Source: Bacteroidales bacterium (GTDB lineage: Bacteria; Bacteroidota; Bacteroidia; Bacteroidales; PXBB01). Taken from it: a stretch of DNA of 64,000 nucleotides. The notes under the pieces are model-generated. The model worked only from the letters and a program-made list of their open reading frames with translations. It searched no databases and had not been told where the DNA came from. The translations under genes were made by a program, and so were the position numbers. The DNA lies in contig JAQVVM010000010.1 of NCBI GenBank assembly GCA_028698995.1, forward strand, positions 19,857 through 83,856, given 5' to 3'. How positions within the stretch are numbered: the first letter of the stretch is position 1; every line of letters begins with the position of its first letter. Positions 8,761 through 64,000 of the stretch are shown piece by piece.

Positions 8761-8770
8761 CTGAAAGAAA

Positions 8771-15471: not shown

Positions 15472-15501
15472 CTTGATTTCATTTATTGGATGTTTCAAAT
15501 A

Positions 15502-24033: not shown

Positions 24034-24140
24034 ATTAAAATTATTTACAATTAAGAATATGTTTATATCAAGTAATAGATTAAATTATATTTTGCACTGA
24101 CAAATATATAAATATTTTTAATAAACAACACAAAATAAAA

Positions 24141-24166
24141 AAAGCCTTTTCGTACGAAAAGGCTTT
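24141..24166 (-). terminator. Rho-independent terminator after the 24188 gene
   Basis: Perfect 12-bp stem aaagccttttcg/cgaaaaggcttt with a 2-nt loop, followed on the minus strand by a T-run (ttttttatttt). Confidence 0.75.
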
Positions 24167-24187
24167 CAAAAAAGATTACAGGTCTCT

Positions 24188-27340: not shown

Positions 27341-27518
27341 AATCAGATGTTATTTGTAAATAATATTAATATATTAATTTGATGATAATACGATTAGCAA
27401 AATAAAAAGACTGACAAATTTAAAATTAAATTTAATATTCTACAATTTATTTAAAAATATTTTTCTTATTTTTTTTTTTGCTAAAAACTTCAATATACAG
27501 GTAAAATTTATATTCCTT

Positions 27519-32313: not shown

Positions 32314-32564
32314 AAAAATACAATTGTTTCTACTACTCTCCAAAGTTTACAATGTTTATTTATTATTTTCCAAATATAATATAATTCTCATTTATTAAAC
32401 TTTTGTAAAACGGGTTCATAAAATCTATATCGTTTAAAAAATACAAACGAAATCGTAATCAATTATTTAGATTTTATATAAATTAAATCCATATTTACAA
32501 TATATATTAATTAAAAGGAGAAAAACCTCATATTTGTATTTTGATAGTTAGTAATAATAACATT

Positions 32565-38500: not shown

Positions 38501-38756
38501 TGTTTTCACAATAAGTGGCAGGTCTGCATTCCCAATTAACATATTCCCTAACCCGAACAATGGTATTTTTACACTTAACTTATCAGAAGCAACTTATATA
38601 TCTGTTTTCAATACACTTGGTACTGTTGTTTACAGTGGTATTTATGCAGAAGGCACCCATCTTTTCAATCTGAAACATCTATCAGATGGCGTTTACATTG
38701 TCAGGAGTGAAAGTGTACACACATCTGAAAGAATAAAAGTGGTAATTCAAAAATAG
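32565..38756 (+). CDS. Giant (~2063 aa) modular surface protein: N-DFE-x-W modules, four (adhesin-like module + Fn3) pairs, InlB-B/Listeria-Bacteroides-type repeat, 9 two-Cys 51-aa repeats, T9SS type A CTD
   Basis: The track start is TTG. The ATG at 32565 gives MKKTVLLLVLLFATSISFSQ. Recurrent ..P(N/D)CW...LGTMS(D/N)P(N/S)(D/N)..TF..L..F.L.N.Y..F.Y.FDNYSG.DK.I.F modules are each followed by an Fn3-like unit (A.ITW....G.W.I.YG..GF). CYEFVEWSDGRTDNPRFDGPVFHNITVTALF. CTD IFPNPNNGIFTLN...GVYIVRSES...VVIQK. Confidence 0.75.
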   Translation: MKKTVLLLVLLFATSISFSQLINNGDFSNWQVSNYYEYPDEWFIFNDDNAANLIVEKSSLAQQGNYSVKLNTITLGSEILTGAAVYGIIDEDEFKGLPFNLTGNIFHFWYQSNIQPGDMGLMILILYSNGSQIDSLAYPIMSSQSNWTHAMVPVNSSLIQPDSMFLGFLSSVPDFFGGNPSPGSWLRLDNLYFTMGMDPTPLPVPNFSFENWSVAAAEDPDGWQTSNSEHYLILNDTSNVNKSTDYHSSPFASRLEVLDIEGIKMGASLKYTNSNFPYQPSKFYFYYKYLPVGLDTGYINISFTNNGSYVGGVGLPTNGQQLSWEEVELDILYNGIPDKVEVEFQAGSNSGSVLYIDDARFGCINPQNLYGEFTNSTSIQTSWSAGGVETQWQLQWGLQGFPLGTGTNVIVNTNPSHIIDGLNYLNNYDFYVRSICNAGDSSEWVGPYGICIGQDVVIVQDFESVPNNGYPDCWHKYTTGWSQIEALDCCEPHTGNKFLKMSLEGLKTSLIASPLINDDMDTLFISFYAKKNSPQNATLYLGTMSNPSNPATFDTLNAFSLSNVYENYTHYFDNYSGNDKYISILLSTDNGANTEIFMDDIVIDFLPSCIPPLNINANNITLNSADITWDTGGQGLWDIVYGELGFDPYTSGYSDYSITNNSYNLTLLNSGATYDVYLRSDCGIYGLSDWHKINFTTLCSDAHVPIVEGFDNNYVTDLPNCWLSLIEGWGEVFATQYGGNLSQRAANMRMNHNNDSIYFISPYIIENIEDLYVSFDAREQTYDPILQQGTALLTLGTITDPNDASTFTPLQNFPLTNNYDTFQYSFDNYSGSDKRIAFRLKTTNQIYTEIFIDNILVDEVPICLTPDGLNTLNTTINSAVIEWTSTAGEFEIEYGMAPYTFTGIPDSSGITVDTFALSSLNHGTTYEYRVKAVCGPGLESGWSITGSFTTDCDTYQYLHENFDNVSTSQMPNCWTAINTGNSNAFIGAHGSVYFTFPHALLLNNGNLVSSGAQLMAVTPHLDSINQHQIRFFASTNLSSSVLQVGTMSDPNDPLTFAHLQDITIGNNFQEYYVSLSNVTATDGYFAFRHTNPDGGNEEILAVDEFFYEPAESCPRPTALNSNPVNTSSVMLKWTENGNASLWQMEWGIQGFQLGNGNSLNVTQPAKMLFGLTPNTPYEFYVRAICDTVGGDTSLWAGPFAFITDYMCINNTIYGQTPSPISNFLWSAEDMNYTVFQQFTGIGSVFDGLHLWGIQAFWDGSASSECYQEPMDFEVKVFQDNNGQIGTELASFIRSVTPDSTKSTMGLGYQIYEFTLQFPQYFNVADGWFSIRSINSPTCFSLFANTTNPVAQGTLLRVNSITNDTLSYDPLAFCLVNNTHVVNYLSGSNGHLTGQTSQIVLRAGTTSSVLAVADTCYEFVEWSDGRTDNPRFDGPVFHNITVTALFDLKNTMFYDTVYICPGDTFFFGDIQQQVLTEEGNYSGSFITSMGCDSIINLNLIHHPVYEFEQIETICDGDTFSWRGNNYTTENTYFDSLTSVYGCDSVFILQLIVFPSYEYVHHVEICDGDSLTWRGNSYTVQGTYYDSLFTVNGCDSVFTLHLSINPVYEFTHIEQICNNDTFTWHGNDYTAQGLYYDSLTTVNGCDSVYKLHLIILPTYETTEIEHICNGDTFIWRGNSYTDQGMYFDSLLTVQGCDSVFKLHLIVHPTFEFLHTEHICTGDTFNWHGNTYNSQGHYYDSLQTTYGCDSVYILHLIINQPFEFTHQEEICDGDTFSWHGSNFTTQGLYYDSLQTVFGCDSVYILNLSVNPAFEFLQTDTICNGDTITWRGNNYSSQGMYYDSLLSIHGCDSIYKLHLIVNPSFEIIHTEHLCHGDTFTWRGNDYTLAGTYHDSLLTVHGCDSVFTLVLNISTVDVSVSQNGVNLTSNAINSTYQWVDCDNNYNLINGETNALFTATANGNYAVIITHNNCVDTSACYNVTGVFTISGRSAFPINIFPNPNNGIFTLNLSEATYISVFNTLGTVVYSGIYAEGTHLFNLKHLSDGVYIVRSESVHTSERIKVVIQK
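36936..38321 (+). repeat. Nine tandem coding repeats (51 aa / 153 nt), two conserved Cys each
   Basis: Consensus ICxGDTFxW(R/H)GNxYTxQGxYYDSLxTVxGCDSV(F/Y)xLxLxVxPx(F/Y)E. The ATC-TGY anchors of units 2-9 (37098, 37251 ... 38169) are in perfect 153-nt register. The first unit (36936) is degenerate and 54 aa long. Confidence 0.9.
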
Positions 38757-38882: not shown

Positions 38883-39251
38883 GGGGCTGACCGGATTTGA
38901 CAGCAGGGATTGTGGGGAAGTAAGCATGCCGAGCGTTGTGAATATGGCTCGTAAATCCTAATTCTCACGCCTATTAAATGGCAACGATTACAATTACGCT
39001 ATAGCTGCTTAGTTTTAGAAATTAAGCGCAAGCCGTTTCCGGAGAAACATTTCTCGACTGTGTCTCCTGCGAAGCGTCGCAAATGTTGAGATAGCACATG
39101 CAGAGTCTTGATGCAGGTGTGAAATTAAAAAGACTAAGGTTAAGTCAGGTTTGCTTTTGACACGGCTTAACTCGAAAACCAAGAAAAGCTAAGCGTGTAG
39201 AAAGCTTTTTTGCAACTTGTTTGGACCGGGGTTCGACTCCCCGCAGCTCCA
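38883..39251 (+). ncRNA. ssrA: tmRNA (transfer-messenger RNA)
   Basis: The 5' GGGGCUG pairs with the 3' CAGCUCC, including the G3:U Ala identity pair. T-arm GGGGTTCGACTCCCC. Discriminator A, with no encoded CCA. Tag reading frame 38980..39012 GGC AAC GAT TAC AAT TAC GCT ATA GCT GCT TAG encodes GNDYNYAIAA. Length 369 nt. Confidence 0.92.
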
Positions 39252-39255
39252 CAAA
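39240..39255 (+). repeat. attL core (tmRNA 3' end)
   Basis: CCCGCAGCTCCACAAA, identical to 46445..46460. Confidence 0.85.
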
Positions 39256-41016: not shown

Positions 41017-42324
41017 TTAGTTAAGGTTTATTTTTTCAAGTAACTTTTTCAAATCCTGTAATCGTTCTAAATAGGGTAAAAACGTTTTTTTACCGTTATT
41101 AAATTTTATTGTAGCAAGATGACAATCAATAAATACAGATACGTTTTTTATAATACTGTATTCATTAAATTTTATGGGTTCTGTAGGTAGTTTGATATTT
41201 GAAAAGAAAAATTCAAGTTCCTGAATATTCCAAACAGATTGTGCCTGAATATCAGTTATTTTATTTATAATAGTGTCCTGCATTATTGGTTCGGGGGGTG
41301 CTTCCGGCACCTCTTTACAATTCAGTTTATAATACTGAAAATTTGCTTTCAAAACCTCATCAAACAAAGCCTTTGCCCTGTGTTCATCATTCTTTTTTAT
41401 TACAATCTCATCATGTATTGATAAGAAAGGTATATTGTTTTTAATTAGCAGTTCCCAAACGCTTCGCATTATACTAACTTCTGTATTTTGTAGTAACCAT
41501 GCTAAATTAGAATGTACTTTGTGTTTGTTATGTGGGTTTTTAGGTATCTCAGCACCTTTAAACTCATTTATCCAGTTTATCCAGTCAGCACTGCCAAACA
41601 TTTTTGAAAGTTCATCACTGGGCTTGCTAAAGAGTATTTCAAAAAATCTTTTCTTTGCTTTATCTCTTGTTTGCAAATTCGCTTTTTGTTGTAACATTAC
41701 ATAAATGTCGGCACCTGAATTAATCCATTCAGAATATTCATTTATACCTATTTTAGAATATAAAATTTTACCTAATAGAAGCGGTTGCATAGTGGCAACA
41801 TCTAAACTGGTGGTTTGTTCATTATCAATTAATAAATTATGTCTTAAGTGCCTGTGAAAATTACTTACAGGGGTGTATACCCTTCCAGCAAATTTATCTA
41901 CAGTGAAAAAAATCCGGGTGTAAACATCTTTGAATTTAAGGAAGGTATCAAAATAAAATGTACTTTCTGAATTAGCCTTTAATCCTGTTCTTTTTAAGTA
42001 ATTCATCATTTGTGCTGTGATATTATCTAACTCCCTTCCCTTTTGCGTGATAAGATTTAAATTAACTGTGCCGGGCTCAGTTGCTTCATAAGAGTAGTAT
42101 GTATATTCATTTTCAGAATGTGAATGAATTATGATTTTCTTTTCTGTGATAAGTTCCTGAAGCAACAAATTATTAAAACAGTCCCGGGCTTTAAAAAAAT
42201 CCACTACATCAGATTTACCAATATTAACAGATGTCTGATTTTCTGCACCTCTTAATCTGAATTGCAAAAACTGTTTAGTTCTTACAAATATTACAAATTC
42301 GTTTTTTATTGCCTCTTTGTTCAT
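41017..42324 (-). CDS. Compact family-A (Pol I-like) nucleic-acid polymerase candidate (435 aa from ATG; 450 aa from the track GTG)
   Basis: Collinear motifs: GRVYTPV; motif A SLDVATMQPLLLG; GADIY; motif B RDKAKKRFFEILFS (R/K/F/F spacing +4/+8/+12); QNTEVSIMR; motif C SIHDEIVI. No exonuclease motifs seen. Numbering follows the 450-aa track ORF. Confidence 0.6.
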   Translation of the reverse strand: MNKEAIKNEFVIFVRTKQFLQFRLRGAENQTSVNIGKSDVVDFFKARDCFNNLLLQELITEKKIIIHSHSENEYTYYSYEATEPGTVNLNLITQKGRELDNITAQMMNYLKRTGLKANSESTFYFDTFLKFKDVYTRIFFTVDKFAGRVYTPVSNFHRHLRHNLLIDNEQTTSLDVATMQPLLLGKILYSKIGINEYSEWINSGADIYVMLQQKANLQTRDKAKKRFFEILFSKPSDELSKMFGSADWINWINEFKGAEIPKNPHNKHKVHSNLAWLLQNTEVSIMRSVWELLIKNNIPFLSIHDEIVIKKNDEHRAKALFDEVLKANFQYYKLNCKEVPEAPPEPIMQDTIINKITDIQAQSVWNIQELEFFFSNIKLPTEPIKFNEYSIIKNVSVFIDCHLATIKFNNGKKTFLPYLERLQDLKKLLEKINLN

Positions 42325-42342
42325 CTTATTGGTTTTCAATGT

Positions 42343-42529
42343 TTTGACTGTGTTAACTGCACTTAACACAGTTCTGTGTTAATACCTGTGTTAACATAGT
42401 ATAATATAAATTTTGTACTCATTTGATTTTCAATTAATTGACTGTGTTAGGTACTGTGTTAACTTACTAATTTTTAATACTGTGTTAATTAACTTGTGCC
42501 TATATATAGGCACAGTTAACACAGTACAG
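42343..42529. promoter_or_regulatory. Iteron-rich putative replication origin of the element
   Basis: The 9-mer CTGTGTTAA occurs direct at 42348, 42374, 42386, 42454 and 42480 (variant CTGTGTTAG at 42442) and inverted at 42363 and 42516. There is an 18-bp perfect palindrome GTGCCTATATATAGGCAC at 42496..42513 and an AT-rich spacer at 42395..42440. Confidence 0.65.
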
Positions 42530-43624
42530 TTAAAATATTTCTTGTTGTTTATCATTTTTATTTAAAGTATAATAAGCATCTCGGGACTTGTCAGCACCCT
42601 GTTTTTTAATAAATCCTTCATTATTATAATACTGTATGAAAGTTCTACACTTGCTTTTCCCAAACTCAAAACCATTTTTGCCAAACTTTAAAATGATATT
42701 TTCCATTAAATCATTATACTTTTGATTTTTTTCAATTTCAAAAACTTCATTAAGTATAATTTTATGTACATTGTCTTGAATGGTATTTACTGTTATTGCT
42801 TTTGTGGCACCTTCTTTTTTTGAAACAAAATTTTCTACAGTTCGGGGCAATCCTTCATTATCAATAACAAATGCAAACTTTTTAAATTCTTTATCTCGGC
42901 AATACTCAGCTTCTACAATTGAAAAATCTGTATTATTACTGTCTTTCGTTATTGATAAGGTAGTTTCTGCTTTATTAATTAGCTCAGTGCCCAAATGTCC
43001 CCGGGCGTTATTATCTGATTTATTTTGATGAAGCACGCAAATAATATGTATCTGTTTTTCTTCACTCCATTTTAAAAGCTTGCTTGCTATGGTGGTGGCT
43101 TGCTCTTCATCATTTATTGAGGTTGCCAAATCTTTAATACCGTCAATGATAACAAAGCCTACATTTGCAGTATTATTAATAGCATATTCGATTAATTCCA
43201 GTCGCTCTGAAGGTGTAAACTTTCTTAAATGATAAATTATAAGGTTATTCGGGTGCGATCTTGTTAATGAACAAATACGTTTAGCGACTATTAAAACATG
43301 ATATTCGCCTTGCTCAGTATCGAAGTATAATATTACACTCTTTTCAGGTGGCAAAAAGCCTGTGATTATTTCTGAATTATCTTTTATTATTGCAGTGATA
43401 ACCATTGTAATAAAAAAGGTTTTTCGGCTTTTAGCTTTTCCAATAACTAAACTGAAATTGCCTAAAGTTGAAATAATACTATCAGAAATTTTCAGGCACC
43501 ATGCCGGCGGTTGTAATTCCTTTGTAAAATCAATTTTAACGCTCTGTAACGTGCTTTCGTTATCTGATTGGGGCTTTTGTTCTTCGCAGACAATATCTGT
43601 AAAGAATTCATCTGGTTTTGTCAT
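42530..43624 (-). CDS. RecA-fold replicative ATPase (RepA/DnaB C-terminal-like, AAA_25-type)
   Basis: Walker A VIGKAKSRKTFF, Walker B GFVIIDGIKDL, HIICVLHQNKSDNNARGHLGTEL. 4-nt overlap with the upstream HTH gene. Confidence 0.65.
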   Translation of the reverse strand: MTKPDEFFTDIVCEEQKPQSDNESTLQSVKIDFTKELQPPAWCLKISDSIISTLGNFSLVIGKAKSRKTFFITMVITAIIKDNSEIITGFLPPEKSVILYFDTEQGEYHVLIVAKRICSLTRSHPNNLIIYHLRKFTPSERLELIEYAINNTANVGFVIIDGIKDLATSINDEEQATTIASKLLKWSEEKQIHIICVLHQNKSDNNARGHLGTELINKAETTLSITKDSNNTDFSIVEAEYCRDKEFKKFAFVIDNEGLPRTVENFVSKKEGATKAITVNTIQDNVHKIILNEVFEIEKNQKYNDLMENIILKFGKNGFEFGKSKCRTFIQYYNNEGFIKKQGADKSRDAYYTLNKNDKQQEIF

Positions 43625-43989: not shown

Positions 43990-44937
43990 TTATTTAAATT
44001 CATTATTATAATGATATTCTAATATTTTTAATTCATCACTTGCCTTTTGTTTACAAGCTTCCGGCAATATTTCAATAACACTTTTAAATAATTTGATTTT
44101 ATTTTTAAATATTTTTTGGGTATAATTAAATGGTGGTTCTTTTCTGTTAATAGGGCTCGAATAATAATTATATTGATTAAGCAATCTTTGCCCTTTTAAT
44201 CCAAAATCTTTTGCAATTTCATTGCAGTTATCATTTGTAATTGATATACTTTCATAAACATATTTTAATGCAATTTGATTAATAGTTAATCCGGGCTTTT
44301 CTTTTGGTGGCTGTGGCTCAGATTTATTGCATTTCATTTCATATTCAGAACGTGCCAGTTCTGCTTTTATCCATTCAATTAAACCAATAGAATTATAATA
44401 ATCATTTGTGATTTCATCAAATCCAGTACTTTTTGAATAGATGTCAAACAATAAGTTCATTAAATATTTGTGCTTCTCTGAAGGCTCTTTAATGCTTAAT
44501 AACTTTACTTCAATTTCTTCAAATTTAAATTCAAAATTATCAGTCTCTTTCATTATTTCATTAATAAACAAATCAGGATTTAAATCAAACCTATAATCTA
44601 AAATCTGAATATATACCATGCTAATTTTATCAGTTTCAGGATAATGATGTAAAATGCCTAAAATTCTATCAATAAAAAATAGTTGTTCAACTTCATTAAA
44701 CTTATATAAAATTGATATTTGTTTAATTTTTTCAAGACAAGCAAAAGGCTTATTGCTATTATTTTGAATAAAAAAATAAATATCATGTAAAGCTTTGATG
44801 AATACACTAAAATTTTTATTTGTTTTTGGCTTATTGCTTCCTGAAAAAAGAAAATACAAACTTTGTGCATTTACGTTAAAATGTCCATCAGGAGTGCTTA
44901 AGTATTTATCATAATTAATTTTTTCTTCTTTTTTCAT
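43990..44937 (-). CDS. Hypothetical protein (315 aa)
   Basis: ATG-initiated with a 4-nt overlap with the integrase stop. No recognisable motif. Confidence 0.45.
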   Translation of the reverse strand: MKKEEKINYDKYLSTPDGHFNVNAQSLYFLFSGSNKPKTNKNFSVFIKALHDIYFFIQNNSNKPFACLEKIKQISILYKFNEVEQLFFIDRILGILHHYPETDKISMVYIQILDYRFDLNPDLFINEIMKETDNFEFKFEEIEVKLLSIKEPSEKHKYLMNLLFDIYSKSTGFDEITNDYYNSIGLIEWIKAELARSEYEMKCNKSEPQPPKEKPGLTINQIALKYVYESISITNDNCNEIAKDFGLKGQRLLNQYNYYSSPINRKEPPFNYTQKIFKNKIKLFKSVIEILPEACKQKASDELKILEYHYNNEFK

Positions 44938-46274
44938 GCTTCATTAAACTTATTCATTGATACTGCTTTCTGTTTATCGGTAATCTTAATATATGCCTCG
45001 AGTGTGCGGTGGTCTTTATGGCCAGTCCATGCCCTTATAATATCGGGTTGTATTCCTAAATATAAAGCATTGATAATAAAAGTTTTTCGGGCGGTGTGGG
45101 TTGTTAACAGTTCCCATTTTTCAAAAGTCGTATCAATACGCTTGTTACCCCTAAATTCTGTTATACTCTCTTTGCTGTCAAATCCTGCCAAACGTGCAGC
45201 TTCTTTTAGATACTCATTATACTTTTGGTTGCTAATTACAGGAAACGCCCTGTTATCTCTTAAATCAATATTCATGTACTTATTCCAAATGGCAACTGCA
45301 TATTTGTTTAACTGAATTGTAAGTTTGTCATCAGTCTTTACAGTCATAATTTCAATATACAAATTACCTTCAGCATCTTGTTTGAAGTCGTTCTTTTTCA
45401 GGTTTGCAATATCTGAGTATCGAAGCGACGTAAAGCAACAAAAGCAATATACATCTCTAATTTGTGCCAGTTTGGTATTACTCAGAAAATCAAAGTTATT
45501 AAAATGCTGTAATTCATTCCACGATAAAAAAACAATATTATTTTGATAGTCGCCTGTTGAAGTGCCTTTAAATTTAAACTCAAAATTCTTAAAAGTAAAA
45601 TTAGTATTATATCCCTTCTTTACACCCCAATTTAAAAACCACTTAAAAAGCTTCATATACTTTAAATTAGTGGTGTTATTCAGCTTCAAAACAGTTCTTT
45701 GATAGTTTATATAGCTTTGCAGTAATTCGCTTGTAATGTCGTTAAAATGCAAATCTTTATTATATGCTGATAAGTGGGTTTTTAAGGTTTTAATTTTTTT
45801 AATAGTGCTTTCGCTCCAGTCTTTTGCTGTGCCTTCACTGTCGATAAATTCCTGTACATATTCAATCAGATTTTTAGGGCGTTCGGTAACTGGTGTTTGT
45901 TCTTCTTCAAAACTTTCTAACTTTTCAATAATTTCAGTTAATTCCTTCCAAATATATTTTTTATTTACAGACAAATTTAAGTCTATAGCATTTTTATAAA
46001 TATTTGGTAATTGCTCTTTAATTAGTGCAATACGCTTGTTTATAGTGCCTGCTGTAACTCCCTGTTTATTGATATTATTACGCTTTACAATCTGTTCATC
46101 ATTGTTCCATTTATCAATGTCAATCCGATAACCTATAGGATAAATTGCCCTTTGCCCATCAAATTCAAAATCAATAAGTATAGGTACATTTTCAGTAATT
46201 AATTGCCCTGTGGTCTTGTCTTTTCTCTTTTCTAACTTAAAGCCTGTGATTGCCAGTGTTTTTCTACTTTTCAT
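44934..46274 (-). CDS. int: Tyrosine recombinase/integrase (Bacteroidota-type, long N-terminal arm/SAM-like domains)
   Basis: Catalytic-domain motifs FTSLRYSDI (Arg), HTARKTF (H-x-x-R), WTGHKDHRTLEAYIK (His...Tyr). Adjacent to attR. Confidence 0.85.
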   Translation of the reverse strand: MKSRKTLAITGFKLEKRKDKTTGQLITENVPILIDFEFDGQRAIYPIGYRIDIDKWNNDEQIVKRNNINKQGVTAGTINKRIALIKEQLPNIYKNAIDLNLSVNKKYIWKELTEIIEKLESFEEEQTPVTERPKNLIEYVQEFIDSEGTAKDWSESTIKKIKTLKTHLSAYNKDLHFNDITSELLQSYINYQRTVLKLNNTTNLKYMKLFKWFLNWGVKKGYNTNFTFKNFEFKFKGTSTGDYQNNIVFLSWNELQHFNNFDFLSNTKLAQIRDVYCFCCFTSLRYSDIANLKKNDFKQDAEGNLYIEIMTVKTDDKLTIQLNKYAVAIWNKYMNIDLRDNRAFPVISNQKYNEYLKEAARLAGFDSKESITEFRGNKRIDTTFEKWELLTTHTARKTFIINALYLGIQPDIIRAWTGHKDHRTLEAYIKITDKQKAVSMNKFNEA

Positions 46275-46444: not shown

Positions 46445-46460
46445 CCCGCAGCTCCACAAA
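46445..46460 (+). repeat. attR core (duplicated tmRNA 3' end)
   Basis: CCCGCAGCTCCACAAA, identical to 39240..39255. Confidence 0.85.
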
Positions 46461-46667
46461 ACAGTATTGAGTGTGAGTAGAGAGCAAGAGGATTACTAGT
46501 ATTAAGTTTTACGAACGCTCAATACTGTTTTGTCCCTCAAGACTCAAACTCAAACTCCAACTGTGCAAAAAATCAGTTTTGAGTGTGAGTTCCGAGCAAG
46601 AGCGAGGAAAGAACATTTAAAACTGTTTTGTCCCTCAAAACTCAAACTCTAACTCAAACTGCATTTA

Positions 46668-47012
46668 ATGTTCGATTTCGAAAAACTTGACGTTTATAAC
46701 AAAGCAAAAAATTACAACCTAAAAGTTACATCATTTCTTAACACTACAAAAGTTGATAAAAACACTCTCGACCAGCTCAGAAGAGCTTCATTCAGCATTA
46801 TGCTTAATATAGCAGAGGGTTCCGGAAGGTTTACTAAACCTGACAAACGAAACTTTTATATTATTGCAAGAGGTTCAGCATTTGAATGTGTAGCTATTTT
46901 TGATTATATGAAAGATATAAGCATCATTAATGAGATAGAATATGAAGAATTTTACTCTTTACTTGAAGAAATTTCTAAAATGCTTTATTCCTTGATTAAA
47001 GGATTGCAATAA
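46668..47012 (+). CDS. Four-helix-bundle protein (23S rRNA intervening-sequence protein / Avd-like family), copy 1
   Basis: 114 aa. FEKLDVY..A......V......K......DQLRRASFSI.LNIAEGSGRF...D...FY.IARGS..E is typical of this family. Confidence 0.8.
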   Translation: MFDFEKLDVYNKAKNYNLKVTSFLNTTKVDKNTLDQLRRASFSIMLNIAEGSGRFTKPDKRNFYIIARGSAFECVAIFDYMKDISIINEIEYEEFYSLLEEISKMLYSLIKGLQ

Positions 47013-47206
47013 ATCAGTTTTGAGTGTGAGTTCCGAGCAAGAGCGAGGAAAGAACATTTAAAACTGTTTTGTCCCTCAAGACTCAAACTCAAACTCCAAC
47101 TGTGCAAAAAATCAGTTTTGAGTGTGAGTTCCGAGCAAGAGCGAGGAAAGAACATTTAAAACTGTTTTGTTCCTCAAAACTCAAACTCTAACTCTAACTT
47201 CATTTA

Positions 47207-47551
47207 ATGTTCAATTTCGAAAAACTTGACGTTTATAACAAAGCAAAAAATTACAACCTAAAAGTTACATCATTTCTTAACACTACAAAAGTTGATAAAA
47301 ACACTCTCGACCAGCTCAGAAGAGCTTCATTCAGCATTATGCTTAATATAGCAGAGGGTTCCGGAAGGTTTACTAAACCTGACAAACGAAACTTTTATAT
47401 TATTGCAAGAGGTTCAGCATTTGAATGTGTAGCTATTTTTGATTATATGAAAGATATAAGCATCATTAATGAGATAGAATATGAAGAATTTTACTCTTTA
47501 CTTGAAGAAATTTCTAAAATGCTTTATTCCTTGATTAAAGGATTGCAATAA
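47207..47551 (+). CDS. Four-helix-bundle protein, copy 2
   Basis: Identical to copy 1 except codon 3 (GAT to AAT, D3N), 539 nt downstream. Confidence 0.8.
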   Translation: MFNFEKLDVYNKAKNYNLKVTSFLNTTKVDKNTLDQLRRASFSIMLNIAEGSGRFTKPDKRNFYIIARGSAFECVAIFDYMKDISIINEIEYEEFYSLLEEISKMLYSLIKGLQ

Positions 47552-47743
47552 AACAGTATTGAGTGTGAGTAGAGAGCAAGAGGATTACTAGTATTAAGTT
47601 TTACGAACGCTCAATACTGTTTTGTCCCTCAAGACTCAAACTCAAACTCTAACTCAAACTGTTAAAACCTTAATATTCAAATCCCTGAAGAGTAAAATAT
47701 CAAAGATGCTTAAAATTTTACTAAAACTAAACCAGTAAATACT

Positions 47744-51112: not shown

Positions 51113-51694
51113 ATGAAGTTTAAGTTTATGAGGTTTCTCCGATTTCTGCTTGTAATATTAATTGCTCGAACGAATGTTGCAATAAACGCACAGAGCTTTG
51201 ATTCCATTATTGATTTACGAAACAACAAAACATACAAAACTGTTGAAATTGGGCAACAAGTGTGGATGGCAGAGAATCTTAACTTCAGAACAGCAGTAGG
51301 GTCATGGTGTTATGATAACCAAGAAGAGAACTGCACTAAGTACGGTAGGATGTACAACTGGCATGCAGCAAAGATAGCCTGTCCAGAAGGATGGCGACTG
51401 CCAACAAAAAGTGAGATTGAAATTTTGTTCAGTCAAACAGGAGGTAACAGTACCCTAACCTTTAATGCACTAACAGAAGGCGGTAACAGCGGTTTTTCAG
51501 CTTTAAGTGGTGGATGGAGAGGCACATTTGGCAGCTACAACCACAAAGAGATTATTGGATACTGGTGGACATCTTCAACACATACGGAAGAAAATGCATG
51601 GTTTATGGGCATGAGTATTTTTGGACCTGAAGCTTTTAATACCTATGGAAACAGAAAATGGAGTTTATCCGTGCGTTGCATCAAGGAAAGCTGA
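51113..51694 (+). CDS. Secreted stand-alone Fibrobacter succinogenes major paralogous (FISUMP) domain protein
   Basis: Signal peptide. D.RN.KTYKTVEIGQQVWMAENLNF....GSWCYDN.EENCTKYGRMYNWHAA...CPEGWRLPT..E...L...GGNSGFSAL.GG.R....Y...IGYWWTSS...SVRCIK. Confidence 0.75.
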   Translation: MKFKFMRFLRFLLVILIARTNVAINAQSFDSIIDLRNNKTYKTVEIGQQVWMAENLNFRTAVGSWCYDNQEENCTKYGRMYNWHAAKIACPEGWRLPTKSEIEILFSQTGGNSTLTFNALTEGGNSGFSALSGGWRGTFGSYNHKEIIGYWWTSSTHTEENAWFMGMSIFGPEAFNTYGNRKWSLSVRCIKES

Positions 51695-56720: not shown

Positions 56721-56733
56721 CGGAAATTATTAG

Positions 56734-56805
56734 TAGCCCCACCAAGAATCGAACTTGGATCTAAAGTTTAGGAAACTTCCATTCTATCCGTTGAACTATG
56801 GGGCC
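56734..56805 (-). tRNA. tRNA-Arg (anticodon CCU)
   Basis: Hand fold of GGCCCCATAGTTCAACGGATAGAATGGAAGTTTCCTAAACTTTAGATCCAAGTTCGATTCTTGGTGGGGCTA. 7-bp acceptor stem, D arm GTTC/GAAT, anticodon stem GAAGT/ACTTT with loop TTCCTAA, T arm CCAAG-TTCGATT-CTTGG, discriminator A. 72 nt with no encoded CCA. Confidence 0.85.
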
Positions 56806-56814
56806 ATTATTTTG

Positions 56815-56822
56815 CAAATATA
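56815..56822 (-). promoter_or_regulatory. tRNA-Arg promoter -7 box (TATATTTG on the minus strand); identical duplicate at 57176..57183
   Basis: Matches TAnnTTTG, 9 nt upstream of tRNA position +1. It is part of the 52-nt duplicated block. Confidence 0.5.
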
Positions 56823-56833
56823 TTTATAAAATT

Positions 56834-57079
56834 TCAGATGGGAGGCAATTTTTCTTTCAAAAATTCCTTACAGCATCCCGATTTTAAATAAATTTCCCTT
56901 TTTCGTGCATCCTGCAACGTATTAAAGTCTTCAGTGTAAAAAAGAGTCCAAGGCCTGTATCCTTTGGTTGATTTGGTTGTACCTTGGTTATGTTCTTTAA
57001 CTCTTTTTTCAATATTTTTAGTAAGACCTACATAAATTCGTTTATCTACTGAGCTCAAAATAGCATAAACTTTATACAT
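56834..57079 (-). CDS. Small stand-alone GIY-YIG nuclease-domain protein (81 aa)
   Basis: MYKVYAILSSVDKRIYVGLTKNIEKRVKEHNQG...GYRPWTLFYTEDFNTLQDARKREIYLKS carries the GIY-YIG beta-strands (VYAI / IYVG), conserved R and E (KRVKEHN), and a helix with R.E..LK. The track ORF (to 57178) reads through the tRNA fragment, so the ATG at 57079 is preferred. Confidence 0.75.
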   Translation of the reverse strand: MYKVYAILSSVDKRIYVGLTKNIEKRVKEHNQGTTKSTKGYRPWTLFYTEDFNTLQDARKREIYLKSGCCKEFLKEKLPPI

Positions 57080-57105
57080 TGAAAATAATTTAAGATTGTT
57101 TGTGT

Positions 57106-57166
57106 GTTTCAGGAAAATTCCATTCCCTGCTTGCCGGCAGGCAGGTATCCGTTGAACTATGGGGCC
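57106..57166 (-). pseudogene. Displaced 5' fragment of tRNA-Arg(CCU) (positions 1 to ~40), interrupted by a 20-nt GC-rich palindrome, with a duplicated promoter
   Basis: GGCCCCATAGTTCAACGGATA is identical to tRNA positions 1-21. Then comes the insert CCTGCCTGCCGGCAAGCAGG (57126..57145). Then GAATGGAATTTTCCTGAAAC against the tRNA GAATGGAAGTTTCCTAAAC. No T arm or 3' acceptor is present. The 31 nt upstream are also identical to the real tRNA upstream region. Confidence 0.8.
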
Positions 57167-57516
57167 ATTATTTTGCAAATATATTTATAAAATTTCAAGT
57201 GTGCTGTAAATAATCTTAAAAATCACTTGGATTTATTTTGAGAAAAACGGGCAAATGATTCCTGCTTACCGTTAATAATCGTTTATGTATTAAATATAAT
57301 AATTGTTTTGGTGTGCAGTGCTTCTGATAAAGAAAAAATTAATTTAACGAAATGGTGGGACAGCTGATGTAAAATGGTATTTTTCATTTAAAATATTTAA
57401 TTAAATTTGTTTAATGTTTAAGGATTTTGAAGTGTTTTTCTCTTATGTGGGATTAATTTCATCAACTTCATGGCCTAATTCTTGACCTTTCCATGAGCAG
57501 CTAAAAAACAAATCTA

Positions 57517-58603: not shown

Positions 58604-60757
58604 TTAATTATCCCTAACACAACGGACAGAAAACCCAATAGTCTTATAGTTGTCATCTCTGCCTGCATGGGTGCCATTATAGTGCAAGTACCGATTCCTG
58701 GCATCTGAGGAGGAATACTCGGTAGAACTCCACCAGTAGCCGCTGCGTCCAACGTTGAGGAACGTACCATTGTAATAACGGTTGCCTCCCGGAAGGGCTG
58801 AAAAGCCGGTTTCGTTGGTTGCATCAGCGTTCGGTCTAAACCAATGTGTTGAGCCAATTTCTTTTAGTTTGCCACCGGCAACACTTTCGCCACCCAAATA
58901 TGTAGTTAGTTGTGTCCACTCAGCATCACTTGGCAAGTGCCACCCACTTGGGCATGCAGTTAGTGCTGTATTCCAGTCGTATAATCTGCCATATTTAGTG
59001 CAGTTAGAAGTATTGTTGTCGTAGCACCAACTGCCACTGCTTGTGGTATAATTAAGGTTTTCGGCCATCCATGTTTGTGTGCTTATTCTAACTGTTTTGT
59101 AGGTTTTGCCATCGCGGGTATCTGTAAAGGTGCCTGAAGAAGCGGGCACTGAGCCTGTAGAAGTGCCCGAAGTTGTGGCAAAACTCCTCTCATCCCCATA
59201 AGCCGTACCCTTCTCATTAATGGCATAAGCTCTTACATAGTAAGTCGTATTTTCTCTTAAACCTGTAAGATTTGCCGTAAAACTACCCGTGCCACTGCCT
59301 GCACTTGCTTTGCTGCTGCTTGTGGTGGGGTTGCTGCCTATGCTGTAGCAAATACCGCGTTCGGTGACACTAGAACCCCCATCGCTTGTTACGTTTCCTG
59401 TAACTGTTGCTGTAGTCTGCTGTATATTGCTTGCTGTGCCGGTAACAACGGTGGCTTTGATTGCAGTAGTGGCTGGGCTTGTTGCTTGGTATCTACCTCT
59501 TCTAGGAGCACTAGCTTGAGCAATTGAGTCAGCAGCAATAGAATCTAATCTGGCGTGTTCTAATTCAGCCACAGCAATAGAATCTAATCTGGCGTGTTCA
59601 GATTCTACAGCAGCAATAGAATCTAATCTGGCTTGCTCAATGGCGGCTGATTCTTCTGCACCCGGGCCGCTCCATGGGCGCCATATAAACAATACAACCA
59701 AAAGCAGTAAGGCAATTCCGGGAATCCAGAAAATTTTTCTTTTTGAGGGTTTGGGCTGAGGTTGTGGCAAAAGTTGAGGTTGAGGCTGAGGATCAGGCTG
59801 AGGCGGAAGAATGGGATGGTCTATGATGGTGTTTTCATCTCGGCCAGTAATATTAACATCTTCATTTTTGTTATCAGTATCATCGTCTTTTACTGGTGTT
59901 ATTTTTCGGGTATTTAAGATAATCTCCTGCAGTTCGCCAGCCGATTTTATACGTTTGGAGGGGTCGCGTTCAAGGCAAAGTGCAATAGCCTTAGCCCAGT
60001 TTGCAGGCAATAAAGAGAGTGCCATACTGAGATCCTTATTCAGTATCTGCTCATAAATCTCTTTCTCGGTTTCGGCTGAGCCGGAGCTTTGGGTTTGGGT
60101 AAAAAATAAATCCTTTCCCGTAAAAACCTGATGTACAATGACGCCATAGCTCCAGAGGTCGGTATTGAAACGCAATTCTTCGCCACGCAACTGCTCGGGG
60201 CTGCTGTATTTTAAGGTGCCTCCGCCAAAGGAATTGGAAAACCGGCTTTCACCTTCTTCCCAAACCTGCTTGCTTAAACCGAAATCTGTAATAACTGGCA
60301 CAATATTATCGCCACGCCTTACTACCAATATGTTCCCCGGCTTTAAATCGCGGTGCACTAATTTGTGTGTATGCAGGTGGATGATGCCTTGCAATAAATC
60401 TGCTGCAACTTGCTCTTTTTGGGTGGCCGTAATACCTTGCTTAATGGCTGCGCCTAGGTTGCCGCCTTCGTAAAACTGCATGACTGCATAATCGAAAATA
60501 CCATTTGGCATTTCAAAAGTATAAAGAACTTCATAATTAGCTATGTTTTTATGAGCGGGGATGTCCTTTATTGCCTCAAACTCATCCTTTAATGAAAATT
60601 CTTTGTTCCCAATTAGTCTCACTTCTGAAACCTTTACTGCAACATACTTATTGTATTTTTCATCAAAAGCTTTATAAACCGTACCAAAAGTACCACCTCC
60701 TATTTTATCGGTGCGGACATTGTAACTGTAACGTTTGAAAAATTCTTGTTGGTTCAT
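58604..60757 (-). CDS. Transmembrane Ser/Thr protein kinase with Pro/Gln-rich linker, one TM helix, Fn3-like and FISUMP ectodomains
   Basis: Kinase motifs GGGTFGTVYKA, AVK, HRDLKPGNIL, DFGLS, SPEQ. PILPPQPDPQPQPQLLPQPQPKP. TM IPGIALLLLVVLFIW. The ectodomain ends ..GKTYKTVRISTQTWMAENLNY...GSWCYDN..NCTKYGRLYDW...CPSGWHLPS...YWWSS...SVRCVRD. Confidence 0.85.
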   Translation of the reverse strand: MNQQEFFKRYSYNVRTDKIGGGTFGTVYKAFDEKYNKYVAVKVSEVRLIGNKEFSLKDEFEAIKDIPAHKNIANYEVLYTFEMPNGIFDYAVMQFYEGGNLGAAIKQGITATQKEQVAADLLQGIIHLHTHKLVHRDLKPGNILVVRRGDNIVPVITDFGLSKQVWEEGESRFSNSFGGGTLKYSSPEQLRGEELRFNTDLWSYGVIVHQVFTGKDLFFTQTQSSGSAETEKEIYEQILNKDLSMALSLLPANWAKAIALCLERDPSKRIKSAGELQEIILNTRKITPVKDDDTDNKNEDVNITGRDENTIIDHPILPPQPDPQPQPQLLPQPQPKPSKRKIFWIPGIALLLLVVLFIWRPWSGPGAEESAAIEQARLDSIAAVESEHARLDSIAVAELEHARLDSIAADSIAQASAPRRGRYQATSPATTAIKATVVTGTASNIQQTTATVTGNVTSDGGSSVTERGICYSIGSNPTTSSSKASAGSGTGSFTANLTGLRENTTYYVRAYAINEKGTAYGDERSFATTSGTSTGSVPASSGTFTDTRDGKTYKTVRISTQTWMAENLNYTTSSGSWCYDNNTSNCTKYGRLYDWNTALTACPSGWHLPSDAEWTQLTTYLGGESVAGGKLKEIGSTHWFRPNADATNETGFSALPGGNRYYNGTFLNVGRSGYWWSSTEYSSSDARNRYLHYNGTHAGRDDNYKTIGFSVRCVRDN
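59535..59651 (-). repeat. Three tandem 39-nt (13-aa) coding repeats in the extracytoplasmic juxtamembrane segment
   Basis: gcaatagaatctaatctggc(g/t)tg... recurs at 59535, 59574 and 59613. It encodes (E)(Q/H)ARLDSIA(A/V)(V/A)E(S/L). The paralog has a single copy. Confidence 0.8.
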
Positions 60758-60843
60758 AGTATATTTTTTTGGCGTTTATAAATTTTCGACCCCGAAAGCG
60801 GGGTATTTTACAAATAGTCAAATAAATCAAATAGTCAAATAAA

Positions 60844-62766
60844 TTAAAAATCCCTAACACAACGAACTGAAAACCCCTTAAGGTTGCTCCAGAGAAAACT
60901 CATGTAGGCATCCCGATCTCGCTTGTACAGCTGCAAGTAGCATGGAGCTGCCTCTAAGTCAAATTCTTGATCCTTCGAAGACGACCACCAATACCCTATT
61001 TCTCCAATTTCAGAGAAAATTGATAAATGGACATCATACGAACCGCCCAGAAGAGCGGAAAAACCGCTGTTGCCGCCAACTTTTAACGCATGATAGGCAT
61101 TGTATTCTCTAATTTCGCTTCCACCGCTGCCTCCAACACTGATTAAAAGTGTTTCATAATCGCTTTTTGAGGGCAAATGCCACCCGCTTGGGCATGCACT
61201 TTTAGCTGTATTCCAATCGTATAATCTGCCGTATTTAGAGCAGTTAGAAGTATTGTTTTCGTAGCACCATGAGGTGCCTGTGCTGAAATTTAAATTTTCG
61301 GCCATCCATGTTTGTGTCCCTATTTTAACCCATTTATATGTTTTACCATCTCTGGAATCTGTAAATGCGCCCCCTCTTGTTGTAAAACTCCTTTCTTCAC
61401 CATAAGCCGTTCCCTTCTCATTAATGGCATAAGCATGCATGTAATAGGTGGTATAAATGTTTAAACCCGTGAGGTTTGCCGTAAAACTGCCCGTGCCACT
61501 GTCTGCACTTGCTTTACTGTTGTTTGTGCTGGGATTGCGGCTTGTGCTGTAGCAAATACCGCGTTCGAAAACACGAGCCCCCCCATCGCTTGTAACGTTT
61601 CCTGTAACTACGGCAGTGGTTTGTTGTATGTTGCTTGCTGTGCCGGTAATAACTGTGGCTTTGCTTGCCGTGGTGGCTGGGCTTGTTGCTTGGCTAGTAG
61701 CAGCAAAAACTCGAGCAATTGAGTCAGCAGCAATAGAATCTAATCTGGTTTGCTCAATGGCGGCTAATTCTTCTGCACCCGGGCCACTCCATGGGCGCCA
61801 TATAAACAATACAACCAAAAGCAGTAAGGCAATTCCGGGAATCAAGAAAATTTTTCTTTTTGAGGGTTTGGGCTGATGTTGTGGCGAAGGTTGAGGTTGA
61901 GGCTGAGGCTGAGGCGGAAGAATGGGGTGGTCTATGATGGTGTTTTCAGTCGCATCGGTTTTGGTTTCAATTCCCGGCTCTTTTATTCTAAAATGACTTA
62001 AGGAAGGGCGATATTCAGGGTTTTTGGACACATAGGGTTCTATAAATTCCTGCCAGATTTGAGGTATTTCAGATATATGAATGGGGTCTTCAACTATCTT
62101 TTTCTGTATCTCATAAAAAGAGCTGTTGGTATTATCATAAGGGGCTTTGCCAGTGAGCAAATGATAAAATGTAACAGCCAGTGAGTAAATATCGGTTTTG
62201 TAAGTCAGGTGTTTGCTGTCTTTTACCTGCTCGGGACTCATATACATAAGTGTGCCCATGTGGGTTCCCGTTTGAGTCATGGTAATACTGTCGCGGATCT
62301 TGGCTATACCGAAGTCCAAAAGTTTGAGTTGCCCCTTTGCCGTAATAAAAATATTTGATGGTTTTATATCCCTGTGAATGATATTTTCGCTATGTGTATA
62401 GTTTAAGGCATCAGCCATCTGGTTCCACCACTGCTGCAATTGGGCATCGGAAAATTGTGCGCCCTCTTTAAGCATGTGCTTCAGGTCTTTGCCTTCGAGG
62501 TATTCCATTATTATACAAGGCCTGTTCTCAATGGTGGCAAAGTCATACACTTGCCGTATGTTGGTGTGGTTGAGCTTAACCATTATTCTGGCTTCGTTTC
62601 TGAAGCGCGCAACAATTTCATCGTTTAACGAAAGGTCTTTATGAAGTATTTTTACGGCTGCCGGTTTTTCAATATTATTTTCGGCATACCACACTTCGGC
62701 CATGCCGCCCTCGCCGAGTTTGCGGAGGAGGGTGAAACCGTTTATTGTTTTATTTGTTAAATCCAT
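60844..62766 (-). CDS. Transmembrane Ser/Thr protein kinase, paralog with the same linker/TM/Fn3-like/FISUMP architecture
   Basis: Kinase motifs GEGGMAEVWYA, AVK, HRDIKPSNIF, DFGIA, SPEQ. PILPPQPQPQPQPSPQHQPKP. TM IPGIALLLLVVLFIW. FISUMP GKTYKWVKIGTQTWMAENLNF...WCYEN..NCSKYGRLYDW...CPSGWHLPS...YWWSSS...SVRCVRDF. Confidence 0.85.
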   Translation of the reverse strand: MDLTNKTINGFTLLRKLGEGGMAEVWYAENNIEKPAAVKILHKDLSLNDEIVARFRNEARIMVKLNHTNIRQVYDFATIENRPCIIMEYLEGKDLKHMLKEGAQFSDAQLQQWWNQMADALNYTHSENIIHRDIKPSNIFITAKGQLKLLDFGIAKIRDSITMTQTGTHMGTLMYMSPEQVKDSKHLTYKTDIYSLAVTFYHLLTGKAPYDNTNSSFYEIQKKIVEDPIHISEIPQIWQEFIEPYVSKNPEYRPSLSHFRIKEPGIETKTDATENTIIDHPILPPQPQPQPQPSPQHQPKPSKRKIFLIPGIALLLLVVLFIWRPWSGPGAEELAAIEQTRLDSIAADSIARVFAATSQATSPATTASKATVITGTASNIQQTTAVVTGNVTSDGGARVFERGICYSTSRNPSTNNSKASADSGTGSFTANLTGLNIYTTYYMHAYAINEKGTAYGEERSFTTRGGAFTDSRDGKTYKWVKIGTQTWMAENLNFSTGTSWCYENNTSNCSKYGRLYDWNTAKSACPSGWHLPSKSDYETLLISVGGSGGSEIREYNAYHALKVGGNSGFSALLGGSYDVHLSIFSEIGEIGYWWSSSKDQEFDLEAAPCYLQLYKRDRDAYMSFLWSNLKGFSVRCVRDF

Positions 62767-62904: not shown

Positions 62905-63939
62905 TTAACTGGTACTTACGATTCTAAAACCAATAAAATTTTTCTTGCCGTCAGGTTTTTGATAATTTCTCATGGCACATCTGCAAAATCGTGCACTATT
63001 GCCCCAGCTGCCACCTCTGACGACACGATTTTCACCATCATCAGGACCTCTTGGGTTATTGACTGTTGAGTTATGGTAATAGTCAGAGTTGTAATAATCT
63101 GAACACCATTCGGCTACATTTCCATGTATATCATACAAGCCCCACTCACTTGGATTAAAACTGCCGACAGTTGCAGTTCTTTTTCTATCCAAGCCAGACT
63201 CACAACCACTATAAGGGTTATTGCCATTAAAATTTGCTTGTGAAGTGCTCAGGCAATTACCCGTATTGAAAGGCGTTGTTGTTCCGGCTCTGCATGCAAA
63301 CTCCCATTCTGCTTCAGTGGGCAGGCGGTAAGTTTTGCCTGTTTCTCTGCTTAACCATTCACAAAAAGCTGTAGCATCATGCCAGCTTACATTGATTACT
63401 GGCTTTTTGCCTCTTCCACCATTCGAATCATCAGGTTTTTGACGTTCAGTAGCTTCACAAAAGATATCATACTGCTCGAAAGAAATTTCATGTTTACTAA
63501 TGTGAAAGCTATTTACAACCACATTGTGCTGGTATTCATCGCTTTCCCTGTCCGGCTCGGATGCAGGGCTTCCCATATTAAACCGGGCTCCTTGTATATA
63601 AATCATGTCAATATTCAACCGGTTATTTGTAATGGTAAACTGCTGCCTTGTTATGGGCGTAGTAACACGGGAGGGTGCAGGAGTATCGGTTTCTCCTATA
63701 TTTCTGAATTTTGCAACCACAAGAATAAACATATTTCTGCCTTCGATTCGTGGATATATCCACAAAGTATCTATTTCTCTTGTAAGTGTAACTACTTTTT
63801 GCTCCAAAAAAGCAGAAACGGCACCATCAGTTACCTCTGTAATTGATTTAAAATTATCCTCAGAAGCAAAAGAAGTTTTTAGTAAATCATACATTCCTAT
63901 AACATTATTGGCAATCTCTACAGCAGGGAAATCAGTCAA
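62905..63939 (-). CDS. Protein with C-terminal formylglycine-generating-enzyme-like (SUMF1/FGE-sulfatase) domain
   Basis: F.MGSPASEPDRESDEYQHNVVV.SF.ISKHE.SF.QY..F.......P........PV..VSW.DA..FC.WLS...GK.YRLPTEAEWEFACRAGT..PF.....L...ANF...........V..F.P...GLYD.HGNV.EWC.D......RV.RGGSW. The track start is TTG and the real start is uncertain (M16 at 63894 is possible). Confidence 0.75.
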   Translation of the reverse strand: MTDFPAVEIANNVIGMYDLLKTSFASEDNFKSITEVTDGAVSAFLEQKVVTLTREIDTLWIYPRIEGRNMFILVVAKFRNIGETDTPAPSRVTTPITRQQFTITNNRLNIDMIYIQGARFNMGSPASEPDRESDEYQHNVVVNSFHISKHEISFEQYDIFCEATERQKPDDSNGGRGKKPVINVSWHDATAFCEWLSRETGKTYRLPTEAEWEFACRAGTTTPFNTGNCLSTSQANFNGNNPYSGCESGLDRKRTATVGSFNPSEWGLYDIHGNVAEWCSDYYNSDYYHNSTVNNPRGPDDGENRVVRGGSWGNSARFCRCAMRNYQKPDGKKNFIGFRIVSTS

Positions 63940-64000
63940 AGGGATGTCTGATTTAGAATTTGTTTTTAAATCGTTTTGTTTTATGTTTTTTCTTTGATTG

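Follow-up and report, generated by a model that had tools for sequence, protein, structure and literature searches.

The 64,000-nucleotide (nt) window analysed here (positions 19,857 to 83,856 of contig JAQVVM010000010.1, Bacteroidales bacterium assembly GCA_028698995.1) carries two adjacent genes, here named kinA and kinB, that encode receptor-type Hanks Ser/Thr kinases ending in a FISUMP domain. We found that the two genes are mosaics, in which highly diverged kinase domains and C-terminal ends flank a segment of intermediate divergence and a nearly identical membrane-spanning core. Four tiers of divergence with sharp breakpoints, nearest neighbours that change along the gene, and similar mosaics in kinase arrays elsewhere point to recombination or gene conversion between tandem paralogues in two or more nested events, a reading to which we assign a probability of about 0.7.

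Architecture of kinA and kinB

Three co-oriented minus-strand genes occupy the right end of the window: an open reading frame (ORF) with an FGE-sulfatase domain, kinB and kinA. Domains were called with Pfam and NCBIfam profiles, FISUMP being PF09603/TIGR02145 (Fib_succ_major). The features of the two kinases are listed below, with amino acid (aa) positions and the transmembrane (TM) helices.

58604..60757, minus strand: kinA, ORF for a 717-aa receptor-type Hanks Ser/Thr kinase
60844..62766, minus strand: kinB, ORF for a 640-aa receptor-type Hanks Ser/Thr kinase
59942..60712, minus strand: kinA kinase domain, aa 16-272 (Pfam), 'kinA-type' family (MTQEEFFKRY..., GGGxFGTVY)
61993..62733, minus strand: kinB kinase domain, aa 12-258 (Pfam), 'kinB-type' family
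59681..59737, minus strand: kinA TM helix, aa 341-359, Kyte-Doolittle 19-residue window maximum 2.37, the sole segment at or above 1.6
61798..61854, minus strand: kinB TM helix, aa 305-323, Kyte-Doolittle maximum 2.62, the sole such segment
59533..59640, minus strand: 39-nt tandem repeat in kinA, 2.8 copies of (E)HARLDSIA units, TRF score 160; kinB has one copy

The kinA product runs from a kinase domain through a PQ linker, the TM helix, RLDSIA repeats and a fibronectin type III (Fn3) domain to FISUMP, and kinB is built alike. The proteins are identical to P0001 (kinA) and P0056 (kinB) in our homologue set, and both genes lie on a source contig of 92,798 nt. The Pkinase profile was matched at E=4.7e-43 (147.9 bits) by kinA and E=2.9e-55 (187.9 bits) by kinB, above the Pfam PF00069 cut-off of 31.7 bits, and TIGR02145 at E=3.6e-53 (180.8 bits) and E=1.4e-44 (152.9 bits), respectively, above the curated cut-off of 41.65 bits. 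These results confirm the ORFs, coordinates and common architecture proposed in the first-pass annotation, with an N-terminal Pkinase domain, a C-terminal FISUMP domain and one TM helix in each protein. As read from the translations, both predicted kinases keep every catalytic motif (GGGTFGTV, VAVK, HRDLKPGN, DFG and SSPEQL in kinA; GEGGMAEV, AAVK, HRDIKPSN, DFG and MSPEQV in kinB). The kinA kinase domain is 62-77% identical to kinases of other organisms that are fused to FGE-sulfatase, Sel1 or FISUMP, and the kinB kinase domain is 64-69% identical to many Bacteroidales kinases.

In both proteins the TM segment is preceded by KPSKRK. This arrangement fits a topology with the kinase inside and the sensor outside, and because the host is diderm the Fn3-FISUMP sensor module would then be periplasmic.

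Divergence between kinA and kinB falls into four tiers

Codon-aware and direct DNA alignments of kinA against kinB delimited a shared block of about 780-900 nt in two age tiers, flanked by diverged sequence on either side:

59519..59837, minus strand: recent tract, kinA copy, with the ENTIIDHPILPPQP linker, KPSKRK, TM helix, RPWSGPGAEE and RLDSIAADSIA (alignment to kinB)
61714..61948, minus strand: recent tract, kinB copy (alignment to kinA; repeat families D5, D8 and D13)
58932..59518, minus strand: older shared tract, kinA copy, with Fn3 (59162-59467) and the FISUMP N-half through CPSGWHLPS
61172..61713, minus strand: older shared tract, kinB copy, with Fn3 (61378-61671) and the FISUMP N-half
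58604..58931, minus strand: kinA FISUMP C-half, subtype 1 (LPSDAEWTQLTTYLGG..AGGKLK)
60844..61171, minus strand: kinB FISUMP C-half, subtype 2 (LPSKSDYETLL..GGSG..AYHALK)

The kinase domains share about 26% aa identity, with a third-position identity of 0.04-0.5 and a saturated proportion of synonymous differences (pS 0.79), in agreement with the strong divergence first noted by eye. The linker, TM and RLDSIAA core, by comparison, differs at 8 positions in 235 aligned nt (96.6% identity), with a synonymous divergence (dS) of about 0.03-0.08 and a third-position identity of 0.97. Its only indels are 6 nt in the PQ repeat and 78 nt that correspond to two extra 39-nt RLDSIA units in kinA. The third tier, Fn3 plus the FISUMP N-half, is 81.5% identical (100 mismatches in 541 nt), with dS about 0.56 and a ratio of nonsynonymous to synonymous divergence (dN/dS) of about 0.3. 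The C-terminal ~105 aa of FISUMP form the fourth tier, where sliding windows give 20-45% aa identity and BLASTP about 31%; nt identity there is 47.2% and dS about 1.4.

The boundaries between tiers are sharp. The step between the core and the Fn3-FISUMP segment gave a maximum chi-square at alignment column 354 that none of 2000 permutations equalled, and the core differs from the rest of the shared block at p = 1.6e-9 by Fisher's test. At its 5' edge the block ends abruptly at 59837/61948, with 31% identity over the 33 nt upstream, and its 3' breakpoint lies within FISUMP, right after the conserved CPSGWHLPS motif (~58932/61172). Divergence is thus heterogeneous at synonymous sites too (dS 0.08, 0.56 and saturated, by segment), the pattern looked for as a mark of gene conversion.

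The visual estimates of the first-pass annotation can be refined on this basis. Its count of about five mismatches was right, there being exactly 5 in the 158 nt of 59611-59768 against 61728-61885 (offset 2117), although the start that it gave for the kinB core, 61727, was off by one. The identity was also correctly said to continue beyond that core apart from PQ indels, the full tract being the 235 nt described above. An ectodomain identity of roughly 85% is approached by Fn3 and the FISUMP N-half only, and the FISUMP C-half has diverged as far as the kinases. Sliding-window identity, which had been named as a check that might refute the pattern, is non-uniform with two sharp breakpoints. Recombination is the best explanation, but it is not confined to the membrane-spanning core, since the shared block extends further and has a second junction in mid-FISUMP.

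The source is a contig of a metagenome-assembled genome (MAG), and the longest perfect run common to both cores, 57 nt, can confuse assembly graphs built at small k. A metagenome assembler could in principle have joined or duplicated sequence across this repeat. We regard such an artefact as unlikely. With 8 substitutions and two in-frame indels between them, the copies were not collapsed; both ORFs are intact and encode complete domains; and mosaics of the same kind are found in JGI and ENA assemblies made independently.

Identity of the core is not accounted for by protein constraint

Selection on the protein, for example on TM-mediated dimerisation, or on a nucleotide element might hold the core constant. 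Identical TM and juxtamembrane segments could, speculatively, permit receptor heterodimerisation, and the core dN/dS is about 0.76, a value based on very few changes. The core is no less conserved at synonymous than at nonsynonymous sites, with 97% identity at synonymous third positions, which speaks against constraint at the protein level as the explanation of the kinA-kinB identity. Across the family, moreover, the linker/TM region is the least conserved segment: kinA and kinB are 90% identical there at the aa level, the next best among 232 homologues reaches 43%, and P0126, encoded on the same contig, stands at 36%. The TM peptide pattern with degenerate third positions gave 0 matches in the metagenome contig scan, so that no other copy was seen in the metagenomes covered. 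We consider constraint a very improbable cause of the core identity.

For the intermediate tier, the FISUMP N-half of kinA is 81% identical as protein to that of kinB, 87% to P0091 and 83% to P0122, the latter two from other MAGs. At the DNA level Fn3 plus FISUMP-N is 80.8% identical between kinA and kinB, compared with at most 68.8% to genes of other organisms with similar protein identity. The older tier thus also reflects a truly closer relationship within the source genome.

Concerted evolution and gene conversion are known from bacterial multigene families such as tufA/tufB and the Neisseria pil and opa genes, where paralogues of one genome become alike over short tracts and turn into mosaics whose synonymous divergence changes abruptly. 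Unlike those cases, the tract in kinA and kinB sits inside two otherwise very distant receptor kinases, and together with the intradomain junction it recombines kinase, membrane-core and sensor-tip modules.

The 3' junction separates two FISUMP half-domains

The 3' junction falls in a 98-nt stretch of 90% identity (D10) that encodes NCTKYGRLYDWNTA..CPSGWHLP and is nearly invariant across the family; it is plausible that this conserved stretch served as a homology anchor for recombination. On either side of it, nearest neighbours differ at both the DNA and the protein level. For the kinA C-half the nearest proteins are P0017, P0026 and P0095 (54-57% aa) and the nearest DNA is the P0121 gene (62.7% nt); the N-halves of P0017, P0026 and P0095 are just 36-51% identical to that of kinA, and the converse is true as well. 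The kinB C-half is closest to P0126 (50%), P0061 and P0043, with L2k1 at 54.6% nt, and these three proteins also rank among the nearest to the kinB N-half. Because its neighbours differ between the two halves, the kinA FISUMP domain is best read as a chimera of two subfamilies.

The C-half is probably the fast-evolving, specificity-determining part of the domain. In support, two FISUMP kinases of another array have a dN/dS of 0.11 in Fn3 plus the N-half and 0.94 in the C-half, their dS being much the same on either side (0.13 and 0.18). The C-terminal part is also what varies in targets of diversity-generating retroelements (DGRs) of the related DUF1566/Fib_succ_major class (PMC5758913). The DGR variable proteins (DUF1566/DUF823/Fib_succ_major, CLec2; for example Legionella LdtA) belong to the same domain superfamily and share this C-terminal variability (PMC5758913).

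The FISUMP C-halves might accordingly be DGR variable regions themselves: domains of this type are known targets with a C-terminal variable region (PMC5758913), and the dN/dS contrast just given would fit. Among window repeats of at least 40 nt, we found no pair of template and variable regions and no template-repeat copy of either C-half. Pfam profiles identified no reverse transcriptase (RT) among the RT-sized window ORFs examined, which were housekeeping or island genes, and the four-kinase array L002 described below likewise has no RT. Differences between the C-halves have reached saturation at every codon position and are not specific to adenines. We therefore hold DGR mutagenesis to be the cause with only the slightest probability; unlike DGR targets, kinA and kinB diversify by recombination between paralogues and by ordinary substitution.

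Order of events and polarity of transfer

In the recombination model that we favour, kinA and kinB would be adjacent members of a large Bacteroidales receptor-kinase family that come from different kinase lineages. An older event (dS about 0.56) would have brought the same module of linker, TM, Fn3 and FISUMP N-half into both genes, and its 3' junction in the CPxGWHLPS stretch would have left them with C-halves of different subtypes, which presumably set ligand specificity. A second, recent event, at dS about 0.03-0.08, would then have re-homogenised the 5' 235-320 nt of the block, comprising linker, TM and juxtamembrane repeat, the conversion having run to the 5' limit of the available homology. 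The outcome would be a pair of receptors that differ in catalytic or output domain and in sensor tip and span the membrane with almost the same core. Homologous recombination in the form of non-reciprocal gene conversion, as the mechanism, and the number and order of events are what we infer from the tiers and breakpoints.

Several points weigh against this model. No homology can be seen 5' of the shared block (31% over 33 nt). The older event would thus require a junction made illegitimately or by microhomology, and it could have been a duplication or fusion instead of a conversion. The Fn3 and FISUMP-N segments are kept at 75-87% protein identity across the family, which means that part of the intermediate tier reflects constraint. 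As protein, patches of the kinA ectodomain are closer to P0126 of the same contig, or to P0061 or P0091 of other MAGs, than to kinB, and the older tier may really have come from unsampled paralogues. As to donor and recipient, P0026 and P0091 point in opposite ways. A genome contig scan with kinA, swamped by the conserved FISUMP peptides WMAENLNY and YWWSSTEY, gave no full-length close relative with which to date the events. Finally, the tandem cores come from a MAG assembly.

P0126, P0061, P0091 and P0122 were compared at the protein level. P0026 combines a kinA-type kinase (62%) with a subtype-1 C-half (57%), a pattern that suggests replacement of the middle of kinA. In P0091 the closest of the kinA-type kinases (77%) is joined to a PQ linker and a FISUMP of subtype 2, and this would suggest that the C-half of kinA was replaced. 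P0126 is a partial third kinase at the far end of the source contig, outside the window. It joins a kinase of kinB type to several Fn3 domains and a FISUMP of subtype 2, and the connector between its Fn3 and FISUMP parts (AGTSRGSVSASSGTFTDTRDGKTY) matches the 11-residue connector of kinA, which kinB lacks.

One regularity that would have indicated polarity was rejected. C-half subtype does not track kinase type, as the kinB-type P0121 and P0122 carry DAEW-type C-halves and the kinA-type P0091 and P0043 carry subtype 2.

An alternative history would begin with a whole-gene tandem duplication, after which one copy received its kinase, and one copy its C-half, from other paralogues and the core was later converted. 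Many array neighbours share a kinase region (80-96% nt) joined to unrelated C-terminal modules, so C-terminal replacement after duplication is common, and the lack of 5' homology that hampers classical conversion favours this order as well. It requires about four events compared with two in the preferred model, still calls for a recent conversion to explain the 96.6% core, and would itself give a recombination mosaic, distinguished from the preferred one only by which parts are ancestral. We view it as possible though doubtful.

Kinase arrays elsewhere contain similar mosaics

When metagenome contigs were scanned with aligned kinA-type kinase domains, 80 loci were recovered, 66 of them with a kinase ORF. 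Between two and seven co-oriented kinase genes were present at 22 of these 66, kinA-type and kinB-type genes often being interleaved, and half of the arrays (11 of 22) had at least one gene pair with a partial-length block of 80-96% nt identity beside unrelated or far more diverged parts. Their C-terminal modules include FGE-sulfatase, TonB_C or GldM domains, WG repeats, or none, and in relatives of either lineage the kinase is joined to FGE-sulfatase, Sel1, FISUMP or other modules. At L147, for instance, identity is 71% between the kinases and 89% over the C-terminal 640 nt. In L002, k3 (FGE) and k4 (FISUMP) are 96.3% identical over nt 1-1284 and unrelated beyond, and k1 and k4 have kinases at 77% and Fn3 plus FISUMP at 92.5%; L002 and L003 are one array assembled twice. 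We conclude that the kinA/kinB mosaic is one case of a general evolutionary mode in such arrays, unusual mainly in that the common segment is internal and that a domain is cut by one of the junctions.

The L002 array (13947-19332 of JGI Ga0116244_10001355) comes from another organism and comprises four kinases adjoined by a DDE transposase. Its k3 and k4 lack the 177-nt TM-encoding segment of their paralogue k1 and have no hydrophobic segment, so that their 'sensor' domains would be cytoplasmic or the genes would be decaying.

Fusions of a kinase to an FGE-sulfatase (SUMF1-like) domain occur in Bacteroidota and other phyla. They belong to the same two kinase lineages (kinases 55-66% identical), are found in the same tandem arrays and carry a TM-linked domain of the C-type-lectin-like superfamily, to which FISUMP may belong too, but their sensor is FGE-sulfatase and not Fn3 plus FISUMP.

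Folds and possible function of the sensor module

The region between the TM helix and FISUMP is below the Pfam threshold for Fn3, with 18.1 bits for PF00041 in kinA against a cut-off of 25 bits and no match in kinB. Its AlphaFold2 model (pLDDT 93) matched the Fn3 domains of NCAM2, titin and RsgI4 in Foldseek with a probability of 1.00 and target-normalised TM scores of 0.6-0.7. The predicted structure thus confirms an Fn3 beta-sandwich fold, as had been proposed from sequence by the first reading.

As Fn3 matches dominated the Foldseek search with a two-domain model, the kinA FISUMP domain was modelled alone (pLDDT 92.9). The best match in the Protein Data Bank (PDB) was the C-terminal domain of Legionella pneumophila Lcl (Lcl-C, 8q4e), followed by C-type lectins. 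This match has a Foldseek probability of 0.99 and is otherwise weak (E=0.014, TM scores 0.32/0.42, 16% identity); these best PDB matches reach TM scores of only 0.3-0.5, and the Lcl_C Pfam match is weak too. A PDB sequence search with Fn3 plus FISUMP gave no significant matches. In the model a helix begins at the mid-FISUMP junction, residue 69 of the domain, and the swapped half includes the terminal beta-sheet and a long loop modelled with lower confidence.

Lcl is a secreted adhesin, unlike the kinase-borne FISUMP sensor, and Lcl-C binds sulphated glycosaminoglycans (PMC11162425). This weak structural link, together with four conserved cysteines, suggests that FISUMP might recognise a glycan-type periplasmic ligand. 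As a working model, a ligand on the periplasmic Fn3-FISUMP module would control the cytoplasmic kinase, by analogy with the ligand-dependent activation of PASTA receptor kinases (PknB/Stk1/PrkC), in which an N-terminal Hanks kinase is likewise connected, through a juxtamembrane linker of low complexity and one TM helix, to extracytoplasmic sensor domains. The kinA and kinB proteins have no PASTA match; their sensor is Fn3 plus FISUMP, predicted to be periplasmic in the diderm host. Classification as PASTA kinases (NF033483) was rejected, with 132.5 bits for kinA and 249.3 bits for kinB against a 450-bit cut-off, over the kinase part only. Consistent with the earlier statement that the architecture has no characterised ligand, we found no paper on kinase-FISUMP proteins, their ligand or recombination in such arrays.

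Other features of the window

Two neighbours pointed out in the first-pass annotation carry related domains:

51113..51694, plus strand: stand-alone secreted FISUMP protein, 193 aa, hydrophobic N-terminal signal (TIGR02145 E=4e-41, 141.6 bits)
62905..64000, minus strand: FGE-sulfatase-domain protein upstream of kinB (Pfam E=1.4e-57), its frame open past the window and contig end

The TIGR02145 match bears out the stand-alone FISUMP protein. It has the same C-half subtype as kinB (subtype 2), and a 44-nt stretch of its gene is 80% complementary to the kinB C-half (I1). The neighbour upstream of kinB, P0233 (545 aa, partial), does have the FGE/SUMF1 domain attributed to it and is not fused to a kinase; as a third kinase fusion it was rejected, since P0233 and its homologues carry the FGE domain only.

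Elsewhere in the window, a tmRNA gene at 38883-39252 (plus strand) is followed by genes for a DUF6965 protein (41017-42369), an AAA_25 protein (42530-43624) and a tyrosine integrase (44934-46274), a block that looks like a mobile element integrated beside ssrA. Just past the integrase, at 46458-47654, is a 539-nt tandem direct repeat (97-99% identical) that duplicates a 114-aa ORF (46668-47012 and 47207-47551), whose product may be related to the 'four-helix-bundle / 23S rRNA intervening-sequence protein' family. A tRNA-Arg(CCT) gene lies at 56733-56805 (minus strand), and a 77-nt repeat (56785-56861 and 57146-57222, 86% identical) flanks a small ORF with a GIY-YIG domain at 56834-57178, which suggests an insertion with duplication of the 5' part of the tRNA and the region upstream. 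The 2071-aa ORF at 32541-38756 contains eight 153-nt (51-aa) tandem units at 37087-38271 with conserved Cys-Asp-Ser motifs, and giant neighbouring ORFs at 15502-30875 share shorter repeats. Genes at 7669-10000 encode a radical-SAM protein and HydF, for [FeFe]-hydrogenase maturation, consistent with an anaerobic source organism.

Implications

Gene conversion between tandem paralogues is a well-known process; the receptor family in which we propose it is uncharacterised. The Bacteroidales arrays that encode these kinases, with FISUMP, FGE-sulfatase, TonB_C, GldM or WG-repeat modules, make up a large family that has apparently not been studied. For annotation and phylogenetics, genes like kinA and kinB are not to be handled as single evolutionary units. 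We also raise, with low confidence, the idea that Bacteroidales keep tandem arrays of periplasm-sensing Hanks kinases as a combinatorial 'sensor repertoire' in which kinase outputs are repeatedly re-paired with ligand-binding half-domains. If so, the junctions would be the kinase/linker boundary and the CPxGWHLPS motif in mid-FISUMP, the process would be a recombination counterpart to DGR mutagenesis of the same fold, and the homogenised TM and juxtamembrane core might in addition let neighbouring receptors heterodimerise. On the recombination model, receptor kinases would gain new combinations of sensor and output by exchange at domain boundaries and inside a putative lectin-like sensor domain, at a conserved motif.

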